Source of the DNA: a virus
Lineage: Duplodnaviria; Caudoviricetes
Reading direction: 5' to 3' (one strand)
Virus record (IMG/VR): IMGVR_UViG_3300048819_000066
Span: 1-30,677 of that record
Length of the DNA stretch: 30,677 nt
The notes under the pieces were generated by a model. The model ran no database searches, was not told the DNA's origin, and saw nothing but the letters and a program-made list of their open reading frames with translations. Each line of letters opens with the position of its first letter. Positions within the stretch are counted from its first letter, which is position 1. Shown piece after piece: positions 1 to 30,042 of this stretch. A program made the position numbers and the translations under genes.

Positions 1-43
1 GCTTTAATGGCCTTATAGCTGATAAGGTAGAAAAGGAAATCTT

Positions 44-340
44 GTGGCTTTAGGTGGAAAAAGAGAAGGCTCTGGACGCAAGAAGGGCACTTTAAATAAG
101 CCTACTCAAGATCTATTTGATATATGTTCTAAACACAATGTTAACGTATTTGAGGCCATGATTATGTTAACAGCTAATGAGCAAGATCCAACCAAAAAGT
201 TTGAGCGACTAGCAAAGGTTGCACCTTATTTATATCCACAACGAAAAGCCGTAGAAATGAATGCTACTGTCACCAACAATGAAGAACATCAAAAAGAAAT
301 TGATCGTTATGCGGAAATGCTAGCAAAGGCTAAAGGCTAA
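44..340 (+). CDS. Putative terminase small subunit
   Basis: GTG start after an AAGGA SD. N-terminal GGKREGSGRKKGTLNK resembles TerS-like proteins. Lies just upstream of TerL. Confidence 0.65.
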   Translation: MALGGKREGSGRKKGTLNKPTQDLFDICSKHNVNVFEAMIMLTANEQDPTKKFERLAKVAPYLYPQRKAVEMNATVTNNEEHQKEIDRYAEMLAKAKG

Positions 341-546
341 TGCGTAAACCTATTTTCTGTAATAAGTGTAAACAATTAAAGCCTCAAGGTAGAGACATTG
401 TAGGTCTTGGTTGGCTAGTTTGTGAATGTGATACTCCAAAGCTTCCAAAAGGCGCAAAGCTTGCTGAAGCTAAAGCAACTCAAGACTTAGCGAAGCTTGC
501 GTTGGACGCAATCAAATCTAAAGATCCTTTTGTATTCAAAGAATGA
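340..546 (+). CDS. Hypothetical protein with CxxC...CxC motif; carries an in-frame copy of the 24-bp element
   Basis: Coupled to both neighbours (TAATG, ATGA overlaps). CNKC and CEC motifs. Confidence 0.6.
   Translation: MRKPIFCNKCKQLKPQGRDIVGLGWLVCECDTPKLPKGAKLAEAKATQDLAKLALDAIKSKDPFVFKE
489..512 (+). repeat. 24-bp double-hairpin element, copy 1 (AGCGAAGCTTGCGTTGGACGCAAT)
   Basis: Exact reverse complement of the copies at 29207-29230 and 29246-29269. Read as LAKLALDAI in ORF 340-546. Confidence 0.95.
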
Positions 547-1247
547 TTAAAGATCTTAAAAACCATGACTTTGACTTTCAGAAACATGCTTATAAAAAAG
601 CACTAGCTTTAACCTTTAAACAAGACTTATTTGCTCTAGCCCATGTTGGTCTAGGTTATGAGGCTATGACTAAGCATACGCATAAGCCTATCACTGACAT
701 GCTAATGAGCCCAACGAAGAAGAAGCTTTTAGTTATTCCAAGAGGCTGCTTTAAGTCTTCAATCGCTTCAATATCCTTTCCAATATGGCTATTGATCAAT
801 GATCCAAATAGACGAATATTAATAGACTCAGAGCTTTACACTAATTCATGCAGGTTCTTGCGTGAGATTAAAGGTCACTTAACATCAAAGATTATGATTG
901 ATTTATTCGGTGAATTTGTAGGACCAACATGGACTGAATCAGAGCTTATCATTAAGCAACGAACTAAGGTCTATAAGGAAGCTTCGATCACTTGTTCAGG
1001 CATTGGTGCGCAGAAGACATCACAGCATTATGATTATATCATTGCCGATGACTTAAGTTCGATGGACAATGCCATGAGTGACGATCAGCGGGACAAGGTT
1101 ATTAACCATTATAAGCTCTATATTAGCTTGCTTGAACCAGGTGGGACTATCGTTGTGATAGGTACAAGGTTCAGCCACGGCGATATTGTTCAGCATATTA
1201 TTGATAATGAGATCGATCCTGAACAACGAAAGGGATTAATTGTCTGA
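543..1247 (+). CDS. terL: Terminase large subunit, N-terminal ATPase half (split gene)
   Basis: Walker A-like LLVIPRGCFKSS, Walker B YIIADD, coupling motif VIGTRF. Stops (TGA) about 25 aa after the coupling motif, with no nuclease domain. Confidence 0.88.
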   Translation: MIKDLKNHDFDFQKHAYKKALALTFKQDLFALAHVGLGYEAMTKHTHKPITDMLMSPTKKKLLVIPRGCFKSSIASISFPIWLLINDPNRRILIDSELYTNSCRFLREIKGHLTSKIMIDLFGEFVGPTWTESELIIKQRTKVYKEASITCSGIGAQKTSQHYDYIIADDLSSMDNAMSDDQRDKVINHYKLYISLLEPGGTIVVIGTRFSHGDIVQHIIDNEIDPEQRKGLIV

Positions 1248-1270
1248 TTTAAGACCTAAAGGAGATATAA

Positions 1271-1525
1271 ATGAGAAAGAAAAACAATGACAACAATCTC
1301 GCAAGCATTGGCGTTCCTTTGGAGATTACTGTTACTAATCCAAAGACTAAATCAAAGCATAAATGTCCTTGCTTAATGCCAATGGATTGCATCGGAATGG
1401 ACTATGCTACATTTACAAAGAGTTATGGACCGCATATTGTTAATGCAGTTCATGATTTATTGCAGCACAAAAGCTTTACCAAAGGTCTAGATAGCAAAGA
1501 ATCAAGCTTGATTTTAAGTCCTTAA
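1271..1525 (+). CDS. Hypothetical protein between the terminase halves
   Basis: Strong SD TAAAGGAG. 84 aa. No HNH, GIY-YIG or LAGLIDADG motif seen. Confidence 0.7.
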   Translation: MRKKNNDNNLASIGVPLEITVTNPKTKSKHKCPCLMPMDCIGMDYATFTKSYGPHIVNAVHDLLQHKSFTKGLDSKESSLILSP

Positions 1526-1559
1526 TATGTAGCAATAGTTACTTCATGGAGGAAGTCGT

Positions 1560-1952
1560 ATGCATATAAATTTTCCTATGTCTCAAGGTCTTGGAGTTAC
1601 AACATTCCAAACAGCTAATGGCACATCATTCACTTACATTGCTAATATTAGAAATCAGATAGGTGTTGCGATATTTGCTGGAACTTCAGGCATTGAGATT
1701 GCTGGAATGGGTGTGAGTTATGGACCTTCGTCTATCACATTAATCAATGGTGTTACAACAACACTTACCTTTATGAATTCGAATGGGTCTAGTCTTTTGC
1801 TTGCGCCTAATGGCTCTGGCTTGCCAGTGTTTAACACTATCCTTGAGCCTTTGAGCTTCTTTACAGGTGCTCCGATTTGGTTGAGCCAGCGAGCTAATAG
1901 CTTGACCGTAACAGTGGCTTATTTCACATCGGATGCCTTTGGCAATCAATGA
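1560..1952 (+). CDS. G/S/T-rich, nearly uncharged, probably virion-associated protein between the terminase halves
   Basis: SD GGAGG. Shares NGSSLL and G-[VL]-TTF motifs with the proteins at 8900 and 9782. Its stop overlaps the ATG of the nuclease half. Confidence 0.7.
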   Translation: MHINFPMSQGLGVTTFQTANGTSFTYIANIRNQIGVAIFAGTSGIEIAGMGVSYGPSSITLINGVTTTLTFMNSNGSSLLLAPNGSGLPVFNTILEPLSFFTGAPIWLSQRANSLTVTVAYFTSDAFGNQ

Positions 1953-2740
1953 GTGATAGTGATTGGGATGTGCTTTATAAGTCTTGTTATAATGATGATG
2001 GCTCTCTTTTATTCCCAGAGCGATTAAGTGAAGAATTTCTACAATCAGCTAAGCGTCACATGGGAAGTCAGTTCTTTTCTAATCAATACTTAAACAAAGT
2101 CATTGACGAATCAGCTAAACCGTTTAAAAAGCAATGGTTAAGATACTATGAGGAAATACCTGAAAATGTATACCGATTCATATTTATTGATCCAGCAATC
2201 TCTCAGTCTGATGCTGCTGATTTTACTGCTGTCGCTGTTGTTGCTGTAGATGAGCAAAAGCAGTGGTATTTAGAACATAGTTCAAAGCATAAGATAACCC
2301 CGACTAAGATCATGAATTTATTATTTCAATTGTGTGAACGCTTTAACCCTATGAAGATAGGCATTGAAGATGTAGCCTTTCAAAAAGTGCTAGTTTACAT
2401 GGCATTTGAAGAAATGGAACGTCGTAACATTTGGTTGCCGCTAGAGGGGATTAAGCCACCTAATGACAAAAGCAAGCAAATGAAGATTTTAGGCTTGATT
2501 CCCCGATTTGAATGGGGAAGGATTTTAATTAATAGAGGACTTTATGACTTTGAAAATGAGTACCTTGACTATGCAGGAGAAAGATCAAAGCATGATGACT
2601 TGTTAGATGCGTTGTCGAGCATTGAAGCTCTGATAACATACCCTACAAATAACACGGAGGAAATTAAAGATGTCCCACCAAACCACCCCGACTACGAAAG
2701 ACAATACAGGCTCAAGCTCCAAAGAGGACAAAAGTCCTAA
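1949..2740 (+). CDS. terL: Terminase large subunit, C-terminal RNase H-like nuclease half (split gene)
   Basis: Linker-like DGSLLFPERLS. Catalytic-type motifs FIFIDPA, IGIEDVAFQK and HDDLLDALS typical of the TerL nuclease domain. Confidence 0.88.
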   Translation: MSDSDWDVLYKSCYNDDGSLLFPERLSEEFLQSAKRHMGSQFFSNQYLNKVIDESAKPFKKQWLRYYEEIPENVYRFIFIDPAISQSDAADFTAVAVVAVDEQKQWYLEHSSKHKITPTKIMNLLFQLCERFNPMKIGIEDVAFQKVLVYMAFEEMERRNIWLPLEGIKPPNDKSKQMKILGLIPRFEWGRILINRGLYDFENEYLDYAGERSKHDDLLDALSSIEALITYPTNNTEEIKDVPPNHPDYERQYRLKLQRGQKS

Positions 2741-3002
2741 AGTTAAACCTTTTGATAAGGATATTATAGCGTCAACTCGCGATGAGTATGAAAAAGCTGT
2801 ATCTTATTCACGTCGTGAGAAAGTTCCATATCCTGTCTTTGTTACTGAAGATATATTTGACGTTATTACAGACGGTGATAACAAAGTGCCATTGTTTCAT
2901 AAAGGTGATGGCACTCCTGCTGGTAAAGCTGTCGCAGTTATTCCTTTTGATCGTAAAGACGAAGGTCTTTCCATGCTTTCAGGTGGAAAAAAGATCTTAT
3001 AA
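2670..3002 (+). CDS. Hypothetical protein
   Basis: SD GGAGG before the ATG at 2670. Overlaps the 3' end of the nuclease half by 71 nt. TAATG-coupled to the next ORF. Confidence 0.55.
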   Translation: MSHQTTPTTKDNTGSSSKEDKSPKVKPFDKDIIASTRDEYEKAVSYSRREKVPYPVFVTEDIFDVITDGDNKVPLFHKGDGTPAGKAVAVIPFDRKDEGLSMLSGGKKIL

Positions 3003-3250
3003 TGGAATTAATTGTAATTTCTGGTCTTGTATTTTTATTGATCTTAAGTAACGCTTTATGGACATGGAATACTCACAAGCTTCTAAATAAATTGATGTCT
3101 CGTGATTTTTTTGTGTATCAGCAAGCTAAACAGATACCAAAAGCTGCTGATGCTGAACTAGCAGAGGCGCTTAAAAATGTTAAGATACCAGTCCAAAACG
3201 GTCCAAATGAATTGGATTCACTGGACGAATTGATTAACAGAACGTTTTAA
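3002..3250 (+). CDS. Hypothetical membrane-anchored protein
   Basis: N-terminal hydrophobic helix LIVISGLVFLLILSNALW. Confidence 0.65.
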   Translation: MELIVISGLVFLLILSNALWTWNTHKLLNKLMSRDFFVYQQAKQIPKAADAELAEALKNVKIPVQNGPNELDSLDELINRTF

Positions 3251-3263
3251 ATTATAACCAAAC

Positions 3264-3305
3264 AGCCTTAGCAACCTAGGTTCTAGGGCTCCACTAATAG
3301 CGGAG
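3264..3305 (+). promoter_or_regulatory. Hairpin(s) in the leader of the portal gene
   Basis: AGCCTTAG...CTAGGGCT stem (one G-U) enclosing the palindrome AACCTAGGTT. A following CTCC...GGAG pairing could mask the SD. Confidence 0.35.
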
Positions 3306-3314
3306 ACTCAAGGG

Positions 3315-5435
3315 ATGAGTTTATTCGATCGTGGGCAAGGAAAGCCTACAGGTGATGACGGCGAAGGCCCTTCAGGTGTTATGCCTGTCGACGATGCTAG
3401 TGATCAACCTGATGCTGATAAGAAACTAGCTTCATTTATTAAAGACAAAGTTGAAGAGTCAAGGCGATCTTCTAGTCGTATATCCAACGAAGGCGTTTGG
3501 ATGACGAATATTGCATATTTATTGGGGTTTTATGGAGTCTATTTCGATACTACATTACGACAATACCAGCCAGCACAGAATAACAATACAAGCTACATGT
3601 CGAGAAACAAGCTCCAAGTTAATAAGATTTTACCGACTGTGCAAAATCGCTTGGCTCGTCTTTGCAAAAATCCGCCAAAGTATGAAGTAAGACCTAACTC
3701 GAATGACACTCACGATAAAGAAGCTGCAACCCTATCTTTACAAGTTCTTAACTATATCATGGATAAAGAGAAGGCGACCGCTAAGCGCCAAGAGCTCTAT
3801 ATGTGGATGCAAGAAATAGGGCATAGCTACATCAAGGTTTGCTGGGATGAACAAGCTGGTGAGCCTATGGTTGATCCTGAGACCGATGAGCAGGATGGTT
3901 ATGAGGGCGATGTAAGATTAGAAGTAGTACCAGGTTTAGAGGTTTTTCCAGATCCTATAGCAAAGAATCTTGATGAAGCGCAGTGGGTAGCTCAAGCAAA
4001 GCTTAGAAAACTTGATTACTTTAAAACGCATTATCCTGAACGCGGTGATTTGGTAAAAGAAGAAGGAACTTGGCTGCTCAGTACGCAGTACGAAACCCGC
4101 ATTAATTCCCTTAACGTTAGGGGGCAAGGTCAAACAGGTGCTCAGACTTTCGCCAAGAATACTGCTATCGAGCTTATCTATTATGAGCGCAGAACCAAGA
4201 AATATCCCAATGGCAGAATGATTGTCTCCGCTAATGGCGTCCTTCTTATGGATAAGGAATTGCCTTGTGGCGAGATTCCCCTTGTTAAGTTCGATGACGT
4301 CCTCATTGGTGGCAAGTATTACTCTGAAAGTCTCATCACTCATCTTCGTCCCCTCCAAGATCAATTCAATTGGTTATATTCAAAACGTACTTCATGGGTC
4401 AATAAATTACTAGCTGGAAAATATTTAGCTCCAAAAGGTCATGGAATTATTCAAGAAGCTTTCGATGACACATCTGGTGAAATTATTGAATATAACCCAG
4501 GTCCTCAAGGTCAAAAGCCAGAGGCCATACAAACTCCAATGATACCTCAATATGCTTATCAAGAAGAAGATCGTCTGCAATCTTCGATGTTTGATATTTC
4601 AGGCATTAACGAAGTTTCAAGGGGTCAAGTTCCAACTGCTGGTATTCCAGCCATAGGAATGCAATTCTTAATGGAGCAAGATGATACTAGAATTGGTATC
4701 GTAACAGAGAATAATGAAAATGGTTGGGCAGCAGTTGGCTCCCTTGTGCTTAAATATGTGGAAAAGTATTATGCATTAGAGCGAACTATTAAAATCGCAG
4801 GTCCAAGGCTTGAATATACAGTTAAATCATTTCAAGGAAAAGACATCCGTAAACATACGGATGTTATGGTCATTCGTGGCTCTACATTGCCAGGAAGTAA
4901 AGTGCTTAAACGTCAAGAAATTCTTAACCTTCGTTCACAAGGTTTATTCGGTAATCCAAACGACCCTCAAGTTATTCAAAAAGTAATGGATATGCTTGAG
5001 TATGGTGATTCTTACCTAGCTTGGGAAGAACAAGGCATAGACATGGCTCAAATAGAGAATGATTTAGAGCTTATTGAACAGGAAACTATTCCTGATTTGA
5101 ATGAGTTTGATAATCATGAGCTACATATTAAGCGTAAAAATCTCTATAGAAAATCAGATAAGGTTAAGAAACTAAGCGACACTGCAATGAAGATATTAAT
5201 ATTCGATATAGAGAGACGCATTCAGCTTCTAACTCTATCTAGAAACCCTCAATTAATAGCTCAAGCGCAACAAGTTGCCGTAGCACAACAACAAATAAAC
5301 GCAGGAAAAGCACAATTCATGGCAAATGCTGGAAATCTAACTTCTGGGAACCCACCAGGAATGCCAAGCGGTCCACCACAAGGTGTTGCTCCACTTGGGC
5401 CACCTCAGCCACCAGTGCCACCACCACAAACTTAA
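3315..5435 (+). CDS. Portal protein (P22-like podoviral type)
   Basis: 706 aa, follows TerL. Motifs NKILPTV, FPDPIAKNLDEAQW, LRPLQDQFN and ISGINEVSRG resemble podoviral portals. Q/P-rich C-terminal tail. Confidence 0.85.
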   Translation: MSLFDRGQGKPTGDDGEGPSGVMPVDDASDQPDADKKLASFIKDKVEESRRSSSRISNEGVWMTNIAYLLGFYGVYFDTTLRQYQPAQNNNTSYMSRNKLQVNKILPTVQNRLARLCKNPPKYEVRPNSNDTHDKEAATLSLQVLNYIMDKEKATAKRQELYMWMQEIGHSYIKVCWDEQAGEPMVDPETDEQDGYEGDVRLEVVPGLEVFPDPIAKNLDEAQWVAQAKLRKLDYFKTHYPERGDLVKEEGTWLLSTQYETRINSLNVRGQGQTGAQTFAKNTAIELIYYERRTKKYPNGRMIVSANGVLLMDKELPCGEIPLVKFDDVLIGGKYYSESLITHLRPLQDQFNWLYSKRTSWVNKLLAGKYLAPKGHGIIQEAFDDTSGEIIEYNPGPQGQKPEAIQTPMIPQYAYQEEDRLQSSMFDISGINEVSRGQVPTAGIPAIGMQFLMEQDDTRIGIVTENNENGWAAVGSLVLKYVEKYYALERTIKIAGPRLEYTVKSFQGKDIRKHTDVMVIRGSTLPGSKVLKRQEILNLRSQGLFGNPNDPQVIQKVMDMLEYGDSYLAWEEQGIDMAQIENDLELIEQETIPDLNEFDNHELHIKRKNLYRKSDKVKKLSDTAMKILIFDIERRIQLLTLSRNPQLIAQAQQVAVAQQQINAGKAQFMANAGNLTSGNPPGMPSGPPQGVAPLGPPQPPVPPPQT

Positions 5436-5444
5436 AGGAGATTT

Positions 5445-6284
5445 ATGAAAGAACATATGATGGAAGCTATTAAACGTAAGAAATTTCAAAAACAATATGA
5501 GTCTGATTCTGAAGGCGAACATTCAGAGGGTCAGTCTGCAAAAGAAGGTGATCAAGAACTTGCTCCTGAAGGTGGCATGAGTCCTCATTCAGAACAAGGA
5601 AGTCATTCTAGAGATGCTCTGCTTGGTCATCCACCTGAACATCCAGCTTTAAAGGCAACACGTCCTGCTGATTTACAAGGTGAAACACAATTAGGAAAAG
5701 AAATAGGATTTGATCATGAATCACACGGCTCTCCGGCTAATTCAAAGAATTTATTCATTGATACTAAAAAAGATCCACACGATCCAGTCGATCTTAATAG
5801 ACATCGCAATATGGCTGGTGACGGTTCGAATCCTAAATATGATAATATGGGTGTTGATGAGCATGTAGATGTCCGTAAACAAGCCTCTAAACTCACTGGT
5901 AAGAATGCAATAGCTGGTGAAGCACAAAAACGTCATGAACGTGGTTTTGTTAATTCAAAAATGGACATCGCTAGTAAAGAATCAAGTGCTGGGTCTAACT
6001 TCGGTCGTGACGCTGGAACTGATTCAGAAGATGCAGTTAAACACAATTCACTTCAAGCGGGCTTTGGAGCACCACAATCAAAAGTAAATCGCTCAGGCAG
6101 CGCCAAACAAGGTTGGGACATGGATGAAGAAGGCGCTAATGGCCGTGACAGTTTCTACAAAGCTGGTGGCGAAACAGATCATGATGGTGATGAAGAAGGT
6201 CATAGCATAAAATCTCGTATGACTGGTTTTAAAAGCGCAAGAGCGAAGCTTGATGGATTCTTATCTAAAATGAAAAAAAGCTAA
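5445..6284 (+). CDS. Hypothetical disordered, charged protein (H/D/E/G-rich)
   Basis: SD AAGGAG. Low hydrophobicity. Sits between portal and scaffold. Confidence 0.7.
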   Translation: MKEHMMEAIKRKKFQKQYESDSEGEHSEGQSAKEGDQELAPEGGMSPHSEQGSHSRDALLGHPPEHPALKATRPADLQGETQLGKEIGFDHESHGSPANSKNLFIDTKKDPHDPVDLNRHRNMAGDGSNPKYDNMGVDEHVDVRKQASKLTGKNAIAGEAQKRHERGFVNSKMDIASKESSAGSNFGRDAGTDSEDAVKHNSLQAGFGAPQSKVNRSGSAKQGWDMDEEGANGRDSFYKAGGETDHDGDEEGHSIKSRMTGFKSARAKLDGFLSKMKKS

Positions 6285-12216: not shown

Positions 12217-14487
12217 ATGAAAAGACCTACAATAGCACTATGCTGTATAGCTAAAAATGAAGCAGGAAATATCGAAAAACTTACAAAGTCTGTAGAAGGA
12301 TGCTTTGATAAGCTTTATCTAACTGATACTGGATCAACCGACAACACGGTTGAAATAGCCAAGAAGCTTGGTTGGGAAGTAAGCCATTTTGAATGGGTAC
12401 ATGACTTCTCAAAAGCAAGGAATTTCAATTTCTCTCAAAGCAAAGAAGATTATGTCATGTGGCTTGATCTTGATGATTTATTAACAGGACGAGATGGTTT
12501 CATTAAATGGCGTGATAATTCCATGCAATTTGCTGATTATTGGCTCGCTACTTATGACTATGCTCATGATCATGAAGGTAAACCCGCTGTAAGCTTCGCT
12601 AGAGAGCGAGTTGTTAAGAATAGGCACTCACCTACCTCATGGAAGCATTTTCTTCATGAGGGCATTCCTGGTAAGCCTGGTGAGACTATGAACATGGTAC
12701 CAACAACTGTTTGGAAGGTATCTCATCAACGAACAGCCGAAGATTTGGCTAATGATAAGGGTAGAAATCTTAAAATATTTGAAAACTACATGAAGGACAA
12801 TAAACTTGATGCAAGAATGAAGTTCTATTATGGAAAAGAACTCTTCGAGATTCAACGTCCTGATGAGGCAATTCATCCATTATTAGACGCTGCAAGTGAT
12901 CCTGTAAGTGAGCCTCATGACAGATTGCTTGCGATTCAATATGCTGCTTTTGCGTGTATGTCAGCAGCAGCAATGCTTAATCCACAGAATATTACAGCTA
13001 AAGAAAAAGCAGATAAATTATATTATGATGCTATCAAAATAGCAGGGCAAGGTTTGCAATTAGACTCTCACCGAGCTGAATATTGGACAGTCATTGGTGA
13101 CTCATACGTTAAACTCAGTAAACTTAAAGAAGCTATACCATATTATAGCGCAGCGATGAAGTGTGAACCTGTAGGATTGTCAGGCCAAGCTTATTCATCT
13201 CCTATATTTAGCTTTTTAGATACAAGCACTAAATATCCAAGAAACCAACTTATTCGTTGTTACTTCCATTTAGGAAATCTTTCTAAAGCAAAGGAATTAG
13301 CTGAGGAAACTCAAAGTCTTTATCCAAATGAAGAAACAAAAATAATCTTAGAAGAGATCAAAAAACAAGACGCTATTTCTAATGGTTATAAAACTGCAAA
13401 AGAGTGTGATGACATAGTTTTTACTTGTCCAATGCAAGGCATGTATGAGTGGGACGAGGAAATTTATAAAACAAAAGGAATGGGTGGCAGTGAAACAGCG
13501 TGTATTGAAATGGCGAAAAACCTCAAAGAAAAAACCGGAAAACGTGTTATTGTTTTTAATGGTCGTGCTGCATCTCTTGTGGCTTCTTCAGGTGTTGAGT
13601 ACAGACCAAGTGCTGAAATAGCTGATTATATGTCAAAACATAAACCAAGCATTCACATTGCTTGGAGACATAATATTAAATGCACTGATGCTAGAACATA
13701 TTTATGGTGTCATGATCTTTACACACCTTCGGTTGAATCAGTTCAAAACTTTGATAAGCAAATCTGCTTAAGCCAATTCCATAAACGATACGTTTCTTCT
13801 ATTCAAGGACTTCCAGAGAATAAGATCTGGGTTTCTAGAAATGGTATTGTACCAGAGAGATTCAAAGATCGAAAAAATATTAAAAAGAATCCAATGAAGT
13901 TAGTTTATCCTTCAAGCCCTGATCGTGGCCTAGATAAATTGATTAAAATTTTAGATATTGTAAGATCTAAGCATCCAGTAGAGCTGCATGTGTTTTATGG
14001 ATTTGAAAACTTATATAAATCAGGTCCAGCAATGACAGCATTAGCAGATTCTTTAAAATTAATGATTTCAGAAAGACCTTGGATAACATATCATGGAAAC
14101 ACCGAACAAAAAGAACTCACCAAACACATTTGCGAAGCATCTCTCTGGGTACATCCAGCAAACTTCATTGAGAGCTTTTGCATCACCGCGATCGAAACAA
14201 TCTGCGCTGGAACATATCCTATTACTCGAACGCTGGGTGCGCTACAGGACACTCTCAGAGAAGCAAGCCAGAACAGCTACGCTTATTTATTTGAGACCAA
14301 CGGGATTCATGTCACCGAGGATGAGTATGCAGTTTGGGCAAATAAGGTGTGTGAAGCACTAGAAACCAAAATCTGGGAAAAGATCGACGTAAGTCCAGAA
14401 AAGTATTCTTGGTCTTCTGTAGCAGATGAATGGATTGATGAAATGGGATTAAACTCTAAAGCAAAGCTTAGTGTTATAGGAGCATAA
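12217..14487 (+). CDS. Bifunctional glycosyltransferase: GT2 (GT-A) + TPR + GT4-like (GT-B)
   Basis: GT2 motifs IAKNEA, DTGSTDNT, DFSKARN and WLDLDD (DxD). Central TPR-like helices (FYYGKEL, RAEYWTVIGDSY). GT-B motifs GGSETA, SRNGI, SSPDRGL and the EX7E motif ESFCITAIE. Confidence 0.9.
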   Translation: MKRPTIALCCIAKNEAGNIEKLTKSVEGCFDKLYLTDTGSTDNTVEIAKKLGWEVSHFEWVHDFSKARNFNFSQSKEDYVMWLDLDDLLTGRDGFIKWRDNSMQFADYWLATYDYAHDHEGKPAVSFARERVVKNRHSPTSWKHFLHEGIPGKPGETMNMVPTTVWKVSHQRTAEDLANDKGRNLKIFENYMKDNKLDARMKFYYGKELFEIQRPDEAIHPLLDAASDPVSEPHDRLLAIQYAAFACMSAAAMLNPQNITAKEKADKLYYDAIKIAGQGLQLDSHRAEYWTVIGDSYVKLSKLKEAIPYYSAAMKCEPVGLSGQAYSSPIFSFLDTSTKYPRNQLIRCYFHLGNLSKAKELAEETQSLYPNEETKIILEEIKKQDAISNGYKTAKECDDIVFTCPMQGMYEWDEEIYKTKGMGGSETACIEMAKNLKEKTGKRVIVFNGRAASLVASSGVEYRPSAEIADYMSKHKPSIHIAWRHNIKCTDARTYLWCHDLYTPSVESVQNFDKQICLSQFHKRYVSSIQGLPENKIWVSRNGIVPERFKDRKNIKKNPMKLVYPSSPDRGLDKLIKILDIVRSKHPVELHVFYGFENLYKSGPAMTALADSLKLMISERPWITYHGNTEQKELTKHICEASLWVHPANFIESFCITAIETICAGTYPITRTLGALQDTLREASQNSYAYLFETNGIHVTEDEYAVWANKVCEALETKIWEKIDVSPEKYSWSSVADEWIDEMGLNSKAKLSVIGA

Positions 14488-27698: not shown

Positions 27699-28018
27699 TC
27701 TTCACCTCTGGTGGTCTGATTAGGAGTGCATTTTACAGGCTTTAACTTAACTTCAGCGCCGCATTGGGCGCATGTGCCTTCCCATGGTTGATGCTTTCCG
27801 TAGACAGTGCGCACTTTATCTTCGGGATGTTCACATTTATTTTCCATTGTTAGTCCTTTGATGACGACGAATTTTATCTTTAATCGAATAATCAGTGTCC
27901 AAAACACTCTTTTAAACCAAGGATCAAGTCTGGCATTTACCTCAGTGATTGTTTTTTCATCCCATGGATTGTGCTGGCAAGGATAGTGCCAACAATCGCA
28001 AGCTCTAAAATAACTCAT
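27695..28018 (-). CDS. Cys-rich hypothetical protein; probably two fused cassettes (internal start at 27847, MENKCEH...CAQC)
   Basis: Internal SD AAAGGA plus ATG at 27847, just after the 15-bp junction repeat. Confidence 0.5.
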   Translation of the reverse strand: MSYFRACDCWHYPCQHNPWDEKTITEVNARLDPWFKRVFWTLIIRLKIKFVVIKGLTMENKCEHPEDKVRTVYGKHQPWEGTCAQCGAEVKLKPVKCTPNQTTRGEE

Positions 28019-28134
28019 TTTCCTGCCGTCCTTTGATGACGAACATCGCTCTTATCCGTTTTCCTAGATCCACACCAGTTGAACCACTGCCCATGGTTGA
28101 AATTTCATTTGCTCTCCTTTGATAACTATCCTTC

Positions 28135-28158
28135 ATTGCGTCCAACGCTAGCTTCGCT
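28135..28158 (-). repeat. 24-bp double-hairpin element, copy 3 (AGCGAAGCTAGCGTTGGACGCAAT)
   Basis: Overlaps the TAG stop of the upstream ORF and supplies the ATG (28136) of a 43-aa ORF ending at 28005. Confidence 0.95.
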
Positions 28159-28351
28159 ATGACCATGACCGTGACCCTGACCATGACCCTGACCCTGACC
28201 CTGACCATGACCGTGACCCTGACCGTGACCCTGACTCTGACCCTGACCATGACCGTGACCCTGACTCTGACCATGACCGTGACCCTGACTCTGACCATGA
28301 CCATGGCCCTGACAACAATGATCTATTTCTGTAACTTTTAGGACTATACAT
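28157..28351 (-). CDS. Low-complexity X-Ser dipeptide-repeat protein (W/G/R/E-S x24)
   Basis: ATG at 28351 with SD GGAGG inside element copy 4. Encoded by the hexamer array. Confidence 0.55.
28160..28303. repeat. Hexamer microsatellite, 24 units of TGACC[A/C/G] or TGACTC
   Basis: Directly visible tandem array. Confidence 0.95.
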
Positions 28352-29153: not shown

Positions 29154-29206
29154 CCTCCTTCTAAGACCCCGCTACTGTTGTTAACAAAAATCAACCTAAA
29201 GGCATC

Positions 29207-29230
29207 ATTGCGTCCAACGCAAGCTTCGCT
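29207..29230 (-). repeat. 24-bp double-hairpin element, copy 5
   Basis: Exact match to copy 1 (reverse complement). Confidence 0.95.
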
Positions 29231-29245
29231 TATACAGCAGCGGGG

Positions 29246-29269
29246 ATTGCGTCCAACGCAAGCTTCGCT
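29246..29269 (-). repeat. 24-bp double-hairpin element, copy 6
   Basis: Exact match. 15 nt from copy 5 and 2 nt after the TGA of the methyltransferase gene. Confidence 0.95.
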
Positions 29270-29271
29270 AA

Positions 29272-30042
29272 TCATTTCAGCTTCCCTATCAATACCATTA
29301 CTGGATTATCAGCATAATTAAAACTATATTCTGGAAACAATCTAAACGCTTCAGCAATGAACTCATTCGGAGTGTAAGCTCTTAAGTGATGAATTCCTTC
29401 TTTGTCCCAGTTAGGTGTTCCACTTTCAAATGTATATTTAGGAGTTGATAATAAAACATATTCTGGCAACACCTTACACTTGCGATCAAAGGCGTATCTA
29501 ATCTCATCTACATTGCTTAGATGCTCGATAATCTCGTAAGCCACGAATATACTAGTGTTGGACGCATAGCCTTCACAGCTTGCTATATAATCATCGACAT
29601 AGTGTTTAAGTAATATTTCTTTAGCTGATGCTTTCGCTTCGCTGTTTAAAGTTAAGCATTCATAAGTGAAGTTAAGCTTTGCTATGCAAAGACCAATAGC
29701 GAAAGTAAAATCACCAGGTCCCATGTCGACAATGTGTGGAACTATGTTATTATCATTGAATTCTTTAACTGTATTTCTTAAGCATACACCTCGCATAGTG
29801 GTATTAAGGAATTCATGAGACCATTCATTAGACTTTGGCAGCTCTCTAGAATCATGTAGAAGATCATAGGCAAGAGTGATGTTACAATTAATTTTTGCTA
29901 TGAGTTTTTTAATCGATTCTGGCTTATTATCTCTATAGTAGGCTGGTAAGTTATTAAGAAGTGCTAGAGCACGTTCTGTCTCATCGGCTTCCACTAATTG
30001 TTTCGCAGCATCTAAAAAAACATCTTCATTGAATCTAATCAT
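29272..30042 (-). CDS. Class I SAM-dependent methyltransferase with a helical N-terminal domain
   Basis: Motif I IVDMGPGD, plus AYEIIEHL, LLSTP and HLRAYT, typical of Methyltransf_11/23-like small-molecule or glycan methyltransferases. Confidence 0.7.
   Translation of the reverse strand: MIRFNEDVFLDAAKQLVEADETERALALLNNLPAYYRDNKPESIKKLIAKINCNITLAYDLLHDSRELPKSNEWSHEFLNTTMRGVCLRNTVKEFNDNNIVPHIVDMGPGDFTFAIGLCIAKLNFTYECLTLNSEAKASAKEILLKHYVDDYIASCEGYASNTSIFVAYEIIEHLSNVDEIRYAFDRKCKVLPEYVLLSTPKYTFESGTPNWDKEGIHHLRAYTPNEFIAEAFRLFPEYSFNYADNPVMVLIGKLK

Follow-up and report, generated by a model that had tools for sequence, protein, structure and literature searches.

The large terminase subunit (TerL) of the virus recorded as IMGVR_UViG_3300048819_000066 is encoded by two separately started genes, and the cut between them lies inside the ATPase module rather than at the border with the nuclease. 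The whole record, which is one contig of 30,677 bases without terminal repeats, was analyzed and is referred to here as the window. The same fission is found clade-wide among the relatives of this virus and is under selection. The products of the two genes likely reassemble one to one without splicing, with the second protein donating a predicted strand and lid to the ATPase core formed by the first. The terminase genes and the two genes lying between them are arranged as follows.

Positions 543 to 1247, plus strand: TerL gene 1, 234 residues, with the N-terminal lid part and the ASCE ATPase core, without the last strand and the C-terminal lid.
Positions 1271 to 1525, plus strand: 84-residue gap gene, an open reading frame (ORF) between the terminase halves.
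Positions 1560 to 1952, plus strand: 130-residue gap gene, an ORF between the terminase halves, likely a divergent member of a β-sandwich family of ~105 residues.
Positions 1949 to 2740, plus strand: TerL gene 2, 263 residues, with the predicted last ATPase strand and lid, a linker, an RNase H-like nuclease and a clade-specific C-terminal motif.

A first-pass annotation made from the sequence alone had described terL as two genes with two ORFs between them, and every one of these ORFs was found in its place. Gene 1 carries the Walker A motif PRGCFKS, the Walker B motif IIADD and the coupling motif GTRF, and it stops 24 residues after the last of these, where about 25 had been estimated. Gene 2 follows 701 nucleotides later in a different frame, and its start codon overlaps the stop codon of the 130-residue gene (ATGA), as had been noted. 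Sequences resembling a Shine-Dalgarno (SD) sequence precede both gap ORFs, again in agreement with the annotation, and a weak SD sequence precedes gene 2. In profile searches with the two halves, gene 2 matched the Pfam family Terminase_6C (E 2.7e-8) and gene 1 had no Pfam match, but both fell on the terminase model phrog_38 of PHROGs, of which positions 284–464 correspond to gene 1 and positions 468–716 to gene 2. In addition, the half-length models phrog_4758 (243 positions) and phrog_5573 (250 positions) matched gene 1 (E 3e-17) and gene 2 (E 1.4e-24), respectively, over nearly the whole length of each model; these matches are distant, and they imply that similarly cut terminases are already present in databases.

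The split is real. In a second peat sample (run X2), one contig covers positions 1–6000 of the window, differs from it at three letters and shows neither joints nor loose ends, although this contig is near-identical to the window and may be related to the source record. A misassembly at the gap, which the first-pass annotation had itself considered, and sequencing error were rejected because the X2 contig spans the region and the split recurs throughout the clade. A frameshift or readthrough was rejected as well because the gaps reach 8.7 kb in relatives and stops occur in all three frames between the window genes. No second intact terL was found in the window. Since the window is a 30.7-kb contig without terminal repeats and the relatives are 34–41 kb long, the question of a second copy is settled only for the 21 near-complete relatives (at least 90% complete), each of which has exactly one match per half and no fused gene.

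Structural comparison places the cut within the ATPase module. The predicted model of gene 1 finds its best structural match in PhiV-1 TerL (Z 22.9, root-mean-square deviation 2.5, 216 aligned residues) and aligns to residues 100–306 of T4 gp17 (the ATPase chain compared has 360 residues), 4–204 of P74-26, 9–189 of D6E and 4–165 of Sf6, and gene 1 ends 40–50 residues before the end of the ATPase module in these solved terminases. In D6E, Y213 and R224 of the lid and the linker at 230–241 (PMC5727402) lie beyond the range to which gene 1 aligns, as does, in Sf6, the lid glutamate E187, which belongs to the arginine toggle (PMC7617512). From its residue 5 onward, gene 2 aligns in profile comparison (probability 100%) to the segment that comes next in fused relatives. 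This post-cut segment maps to about residues 221–293 of PhiV-1 TerL, to which a profile built from the fused relatives aligns from end to end (E 1.3e-30), and the profile of gene 2 itself had no match among PDB sequences. The predicted last strand and lid occupy approximately residues 6–50 of gene 2, and its first residues are presumably the last strand of the ATPase sheet, an assignment based partly on terminase topology. Gene 2 is thus predicted to supply more than the nuclease, with strand, lid and linker preceding it. The first-pass annotation had the distance to the second ORF right but took its beginning for the interdomain linker, whereas it is predicted to be the last ATPase strand and the lid. 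The clean division into ATPase and nuclease genes that it described does not hold, because gene 1 ends short of the ATPase module and gene 2 opens with the missing part. For the same reason, the different stoichiometry of the halves that it had suggested is unlikely, and a 1:1 heterodimer would be more likely than free stoichiometry.

One alternative that bears on this point is that the two modules are only loosely coupled, in which case gene 1 would form a lid-less ATPase ring by itself and gene 2 would join at a lower copy number or only at the initiation or termination of packaging. The confident model of gene 1 alone (predicted local distance difference test score, pLDDT, 92.9) could be taken in this sense, and so could the report that the isolated ATPase domain of D6E, lid included, greatly exceeds the full-length protein in activity (PMC5727402) and the differing identities of the two halves in some genome pairs (e.g. 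84% vs 97% for L022/L036). Nevertheless, gene 2 begins with a strongly conserved lid segment, in which L26, L31, G39, Y47 and N49 are invariant in 38/38 sequences, and the lids of D6E and Sf6 hold ATP-site and force-transmitting residues (PMC5727402, PMC7617512), so each ATPase should need its own copy of the lid. We regard such loose coupling as improbable.

The window is one of many cases. A search with gene 1 among proteins of 128–410 residues found 891, the best 120 of which are 181–263 residues long and 50–97% identical to it, while a search among longer proteins brought up first intein-bearing half proteins and then fused kin, which are at most 45% identical to gene 1 over most of its length and at most 38% identical to gene 2. 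The 174 loci that were fetched formed, together with the window, 131 groups at 95% identity, consisting of 50 split groups with both halves in view, 61 in which the ATPase stops and no nuclease follows in the fetched flank, 16 fused groups and 4 cut by a contig end. Two of the 50 split representatives were excluded, which left 48: L159 was rejected as a fused gene with an apparent frameshift, and L006 (MW202554.1) was rejected as a terL cut at another point. Split ATPase ORFs accordingly occur in 109 of the 131 groups (48 with gene 2 in view and 61 others). Among 105 scored split ATPases the stop lies 14–43 residues (median 24) past the coupling motif, and the strand that opens gene 2 directly follows this cut point in the fused kin. 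The gap ranges from −1 to 3835 nucleotides in the 48 loci, with a median of ~1.2 kb, and in whole records the missing gene 2 was located on the same strand farther downstream, at distances of up to 8.7 kb from gene 1. It was found in 45 of the 46 records searched, the exception being a contig that breaks off right after gene 1. Gene 2 alone, used as a protein query in viral contigs, retrieved no loci. A comparison of synteny, which had been suggested as a check, therefore gave the same cut across relatives with variable gap content.

Catalytic residues are conserved in both halves. In gene 1, R67, K71, D169, D170 and G207-T208-R209 are invariant in 69/69 sequences, and D81, E140, D217 and D220 of the gene 2 nuclease are invariant in 38/38, which bears out the earlier statement that the catalytic motifs are kept in both halves. 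The ratio of nonsynonymous to synonymous substitution rates is 0.03–0.13 for gene 1 and 0.03–0.07 for gene 2 (estimable in 5 and 4 of 11 pairs, respectively, the others being saturated at synonymous sites), indicating that both halves are under purifying selection. The start codon of gene 2 lies no more than 11 codons from the conserved strand in 47/48 split loci and exactly one codon before it in 29/48. Because the stop of the upstream ORF lies −11 to +5 nucleotides from this start in 36 of the 48 loci, gene 2 is suggested to be translationally coupled to the ORF that precedes it. What stands of the bipartite terminase first proposed is, therefore, a stable and selected two-gene form, with no intron, intein or second intact terL in the near-complete relatives, whereas its clean cut between ATPase and nuclease does not stand.

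The phylogenetic trees, both of which are unrooted, indicate that the split halves form one clade with a single origin. In the ATPase tree (FastTree, 196 rows), 120 split sequences and one fused sequence, P0141, make up one branch (Shimodaira–Hasegawa, SH, support 93), and in the gene 2 tree (IQ-TREE quick mode, 79 rows), the 38 split sequences and P0141 group together (SH-like approximate likelihood ratio test, SH-aLRT, 100). P0141 is a one-chain terminase nested in the split clade, with a longer junction loop like the tail of the split ATPases, and it keeps the C-terminal motif of the clade; it is, therefore, best read as an apparent re-fusion. The excluded L006, a podovirus in GenBank (MW202554.1, positions 32005–34542), has one gene for ATPase, apparent intein and lid, a 62-residue ORF and a gene for the nuclease alone. 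It is likely an independent fission because it lies outside the split clade in the ATPase tree.

The mechanism that we favor would proceed as follows. Gene 2 would be translated by coupling to whichever gene precedes it, and its N-terminal strand and lid would dock on the ATPase core, making each motor subunit a heterodimer. The non-covalent contact between the halves would be reinforced by residues newly conserved near the cut and by the new C-terminal motif of gene 2. With the halves independent, the cut might then have become an insertion site in the late operon, gathering fibre-like, glycosyltransferase and other genes. The residues fixed around the cut seem consistent with such a reinforced interface: in gene 2, W6 is present in 37/38 split vs 9/58 fused sequences and N45 in 36/38 vs 7/58, and Y10 is present in 36/38 split sequences and is outside the four commonest residues in fused ones; E223 of gene 1 is present in 66/69 split vs 21/58 fused sequences, and the C-terminal motif of gene 2 in 38/38 vs 2/58. 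The tail of gene 1 is variable. A role of the C-terminal motif as a clasp is plausible by analogy because the C-terminal arm of D6E TerL has been described to contact the ATPase site (PMC5727402).

Several observations weigh against the mechanism or limit its reach. The position of the strand and lid in gene 2 was derived from profile alignment and residue ranges. The mean column identity is 55% in the split set and 28% in the fused set, so the split sequences are more closely related to one another, and the clade-specific residues may reflect ancestry instead of an interface. The search patterns were taken from split members, and hence the share of split versus fused loci is biased and is not a natural frequency. 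The clade includes no cultured member, the best match to a GenBank phage being 34% identical. Pairwise identities of the two halves do correlate (r 0.69, with 0/2000 permutations as high), but the nearest neighbours of the halves agree in only 16/38 loci, which does not demonstrate tight co-evolution, and some exchange of halves may have occurred.

[quoted passage not shown] Such an arrangement would provide an assembly checkpoint and may also blunt host sensors (Avs) of whole terminases. The Avs1–3 sensors have been reported to recognise large terminases (PMC11564622), and the idea that a split terminase escapes Avs sensing is speculation.

Another alternative to unspliced reassembly is that the halves are rejoined into a one-chain TerL by an unrecognised intron, by ribosomal bypass or by protein trans-splicing. 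Intron-split terL with confirmed splicing has been reported in Jug phages (PMC12880540) and a split-intein terminase in environmental loci (PMC2677866). Within the clade itself, HNH-AP2 genes occur in 2/48 gaps and ordinary cis inteins inside both halves in relatives, and an 800-nucleotide region at the window gap folds with a z value of −2.3 (vs 20 shuffles). This folding, however, falls within the range of controls, since 3/15 control windows in the genome reach z ≤ −2.3, and nine short gaps of relatives fold at z −1.6 to +1.3. As the first-pass annotation had stated, the window gap contains no homing endonuclease (Pfam) and no intron core (no Rfam match in the window), and Rfam found no intron in 21 related loci, either. 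Moreover, the gaps of up to 8.7 kb are filled with ordinary genes, start codons are retained at the cut, and neither window half has a Hint/intein match in Pfam. The variable tails of 14–43 residues, together with starts no more than 11 codons from the terminase match, leave no room for intein halves, and in L024, where the stop codon of gene 1 and the start codon of gene 2 share one base (a gap of −1 nucleotide), there is no room for any element. Rejoining of the halves must, therefore, be judged extremely unlikely. An RNA-library contig is colinear with window positions 1501–2403 without joints; it falls short of gene 1 and may derive from DNA, and the RNA run X3 covers the whole genome patchily and hence provides no evidence of transcription. 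The two HNH-AP2 genes (L002:6330–6806 and L063:7017–7511) are free-standing and stand directly before gene 2, overlapping its start. The cis inteins of relatives (P0121–P0131, P0133 and P0209–P0211) are placed, for example, near Walker A/B of gene 1 and, in gene 2, between the last catalytic aspartates.

The genes found in the gaps are diverse, but one family prevails. Among 146 gap ORFs, 43 in 39 loci belong to a family of ~105 residues, one member of which was modelled as an eight-stranded β-sandwich (mean pLDDT 82) that resembles small uncharacterised phage proteins (BFVD, best E 1.5e-4). The 130-residue gene of the window was matched to this family in profile–profile comparison with a probability of 75.7% (E 2.4e-5) and is likely a divergent member. 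A further alternative is that the β-sandwich protein of ~105–130 residues is a third subunit or a chaperone that clamps the halves together. It is found in the gap of 42/50 split representatives, a circular count in that the profile was built from them, and downstream of the ATPase in 37/61 further loci but in 0/16 fused loci. In whole records it occurs in 11/14 split vs 0/13 fused ones, although no more than 2 of these 13 fused records are close to complete. The family was not found in the split records G017 and G045, which are 93–94% complete, and none of its columns is conserved at 90%. In addition, the gene is often duplicated and directly followed by long fibre-like genes, for which reason a virion accessory role is a more likely candidate function than a role in the motor. 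A clamp of this kind is, in our view, very unlikely. The 84-residue gene, by comparison, is confined to the nearest relatives, L002, L003 and L009, where the proportion of nonsynonymous differences (pN) is 0.29–0.32 vs 0.66–0.79 for synonymous ones (pS); it had no match in Pfam, PHROGs or ESM Atlas features, and neither gap protein could be assigned to a named family through ESM Atlas. The earlier description of the gap genes as passengers thus suits the 84-residue gene and most gap cargo, but not the 130-residue gene, which likely belongs to a family represented in the majority of the clade's gaps.

The gaps also carry genes for glycosyltransferases, for a methylase and for the HNH-AP2 endonucleases. 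A family of ~270 residues is present in the gaps of 11 relatives, is located upstream of terS in L002 and L003 and has several copies in G003 and G005; a 256-residue ORF at the far end of the window (29272–30042, minus strand) is homologous to it, with 35% identity. A gap gene of 523 residues in L045 (5062–6633) has a weak match to ART-PolyVal (ADP-ribosyltransferase) just under the curated cut-off of Pfam. A 756-residue protein with GT2, TPR and GT1 domains is encoded within the virion gene block of the window (12217–14487), and the GT2 genes in terminase gaps, taken together with this GT2 protein among virion genes, hint at virion glycosylation.

The genes flanking the terminase locus of the window are the following.

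Positions 44 to 340, plus strand: putative small terminase, 98 residues, its function assigned from position only; the PHROGs matches phrog_15261 and phrog_8771 are both of unknown function.
Positions 3315 to 5435, plus strand: portal protein, P22/SU10-like (PF16510, E 3.5e-30).

The head module is intact, with the portal gene at 3315 followed by the scaffold and major head protein genes. Scans of the window for promoters and terminators gave results at or below chance level. Elsewhere in the window, a low-complexity repeat region with an ORF lies at 28005–28304 on the minus strand, and contigs of run X2 break nearby. An X2 contig also skips 39 bases at 29206–29246, where 24 letters can be placed on either side, which points to variation in the copy number of a repeat.

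Models of the packaging motor disagree on how force is transmitted from the ATPase through the lid and the nuclease (PMC5727402, PMC7617512), and a natural enzyme with a non-covalent lid permits mix-and-match tests with the core in the presence or absence of the lid, with mixed rings and of stoichiometry. TerL is also a main marker in phage taxonomy; in this large clade it would pass for a fragmented gene or a pseudogene, or its half-genes would go undetected. Furthermore, fibre-like and glycosyltransferase genes are accommodated at the cut, which serves as a cargo slot of as much as 8.7 kb.

Among known systems, PhiV-1 TerL (PDB 8DGC chain E; T7 gp19 models 4BIJ/4BIL) has the same ATPase fold and motifs as the split clade. 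The window TerL has the ASCE ATPase, the RNase H-like nuclease and the portal/head neighbourhood of the T7/PhiV-1-like type, but it is made as two ORFs, while T7-type TerL is one polypeptide, with strand, lid and nuclease linked covalently to the core. A functional precedent for the splicing-free assembly of an essential phage enzyme from pieces is offered by NrdA of Aeromonas phage Aeh1 (nrdA-a/mobE/nrdA-b), the two pieces of which have been reported to assemble without RNA or protein splicing (PMC3045599). That case concerns another enzyme, which a resident homing endonuclease divides and which has essential tails at the cut, whereas in the split clade the gap cargo changes, an endonuclease is present in 2/48 loci and the tail of gene 1 is variable. 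In Jug phages and "fractured genes," terL likewise consists of separate ORFs with genes between them (PMC12880540, PMC2677866); those described are rejoined or carry splicing elements, in contrast to the window, in which neither an intron core nor intein halves at the ends were found. For phiPDS1, two coding sequences for terL have been reported, and the authors suspect an assembly problem (PMC10773633); because this case looks to us like a frameshift, it was set aside as a firm two-gene precedent. A literature search that covered few subscription papers found no publication on a terminase whose cut lies inside the ATPase and whose halves are set apart. A published parallel is that of cluster AY Arthrobacter phages, most of which are reported to have one gene for the ATPase domain and, next to it, a second for the nuclease domain (PMC11920828, PMC12820723). 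These phages (BillyTP gp2/gp3, PP978841; BlueShadow) are cultured and viable with a TerL in two genes, as in the window. In BillyTP, gp2 (359 residues) and gp3 overlap, and the cut comes shortly before the nuclease, with the first catalytic Asp at residue 15 of gp3 compared with residue 81 of window gene 2. The genes are consecutive and without cargo in cluster AY, whereas two genes separate the halves in the window. A two-gene TerL is, therefore, already known from cluster AY, and the cut inside the ATPase module, with separated halves and a cargo slot, is a variant on that arrangement.

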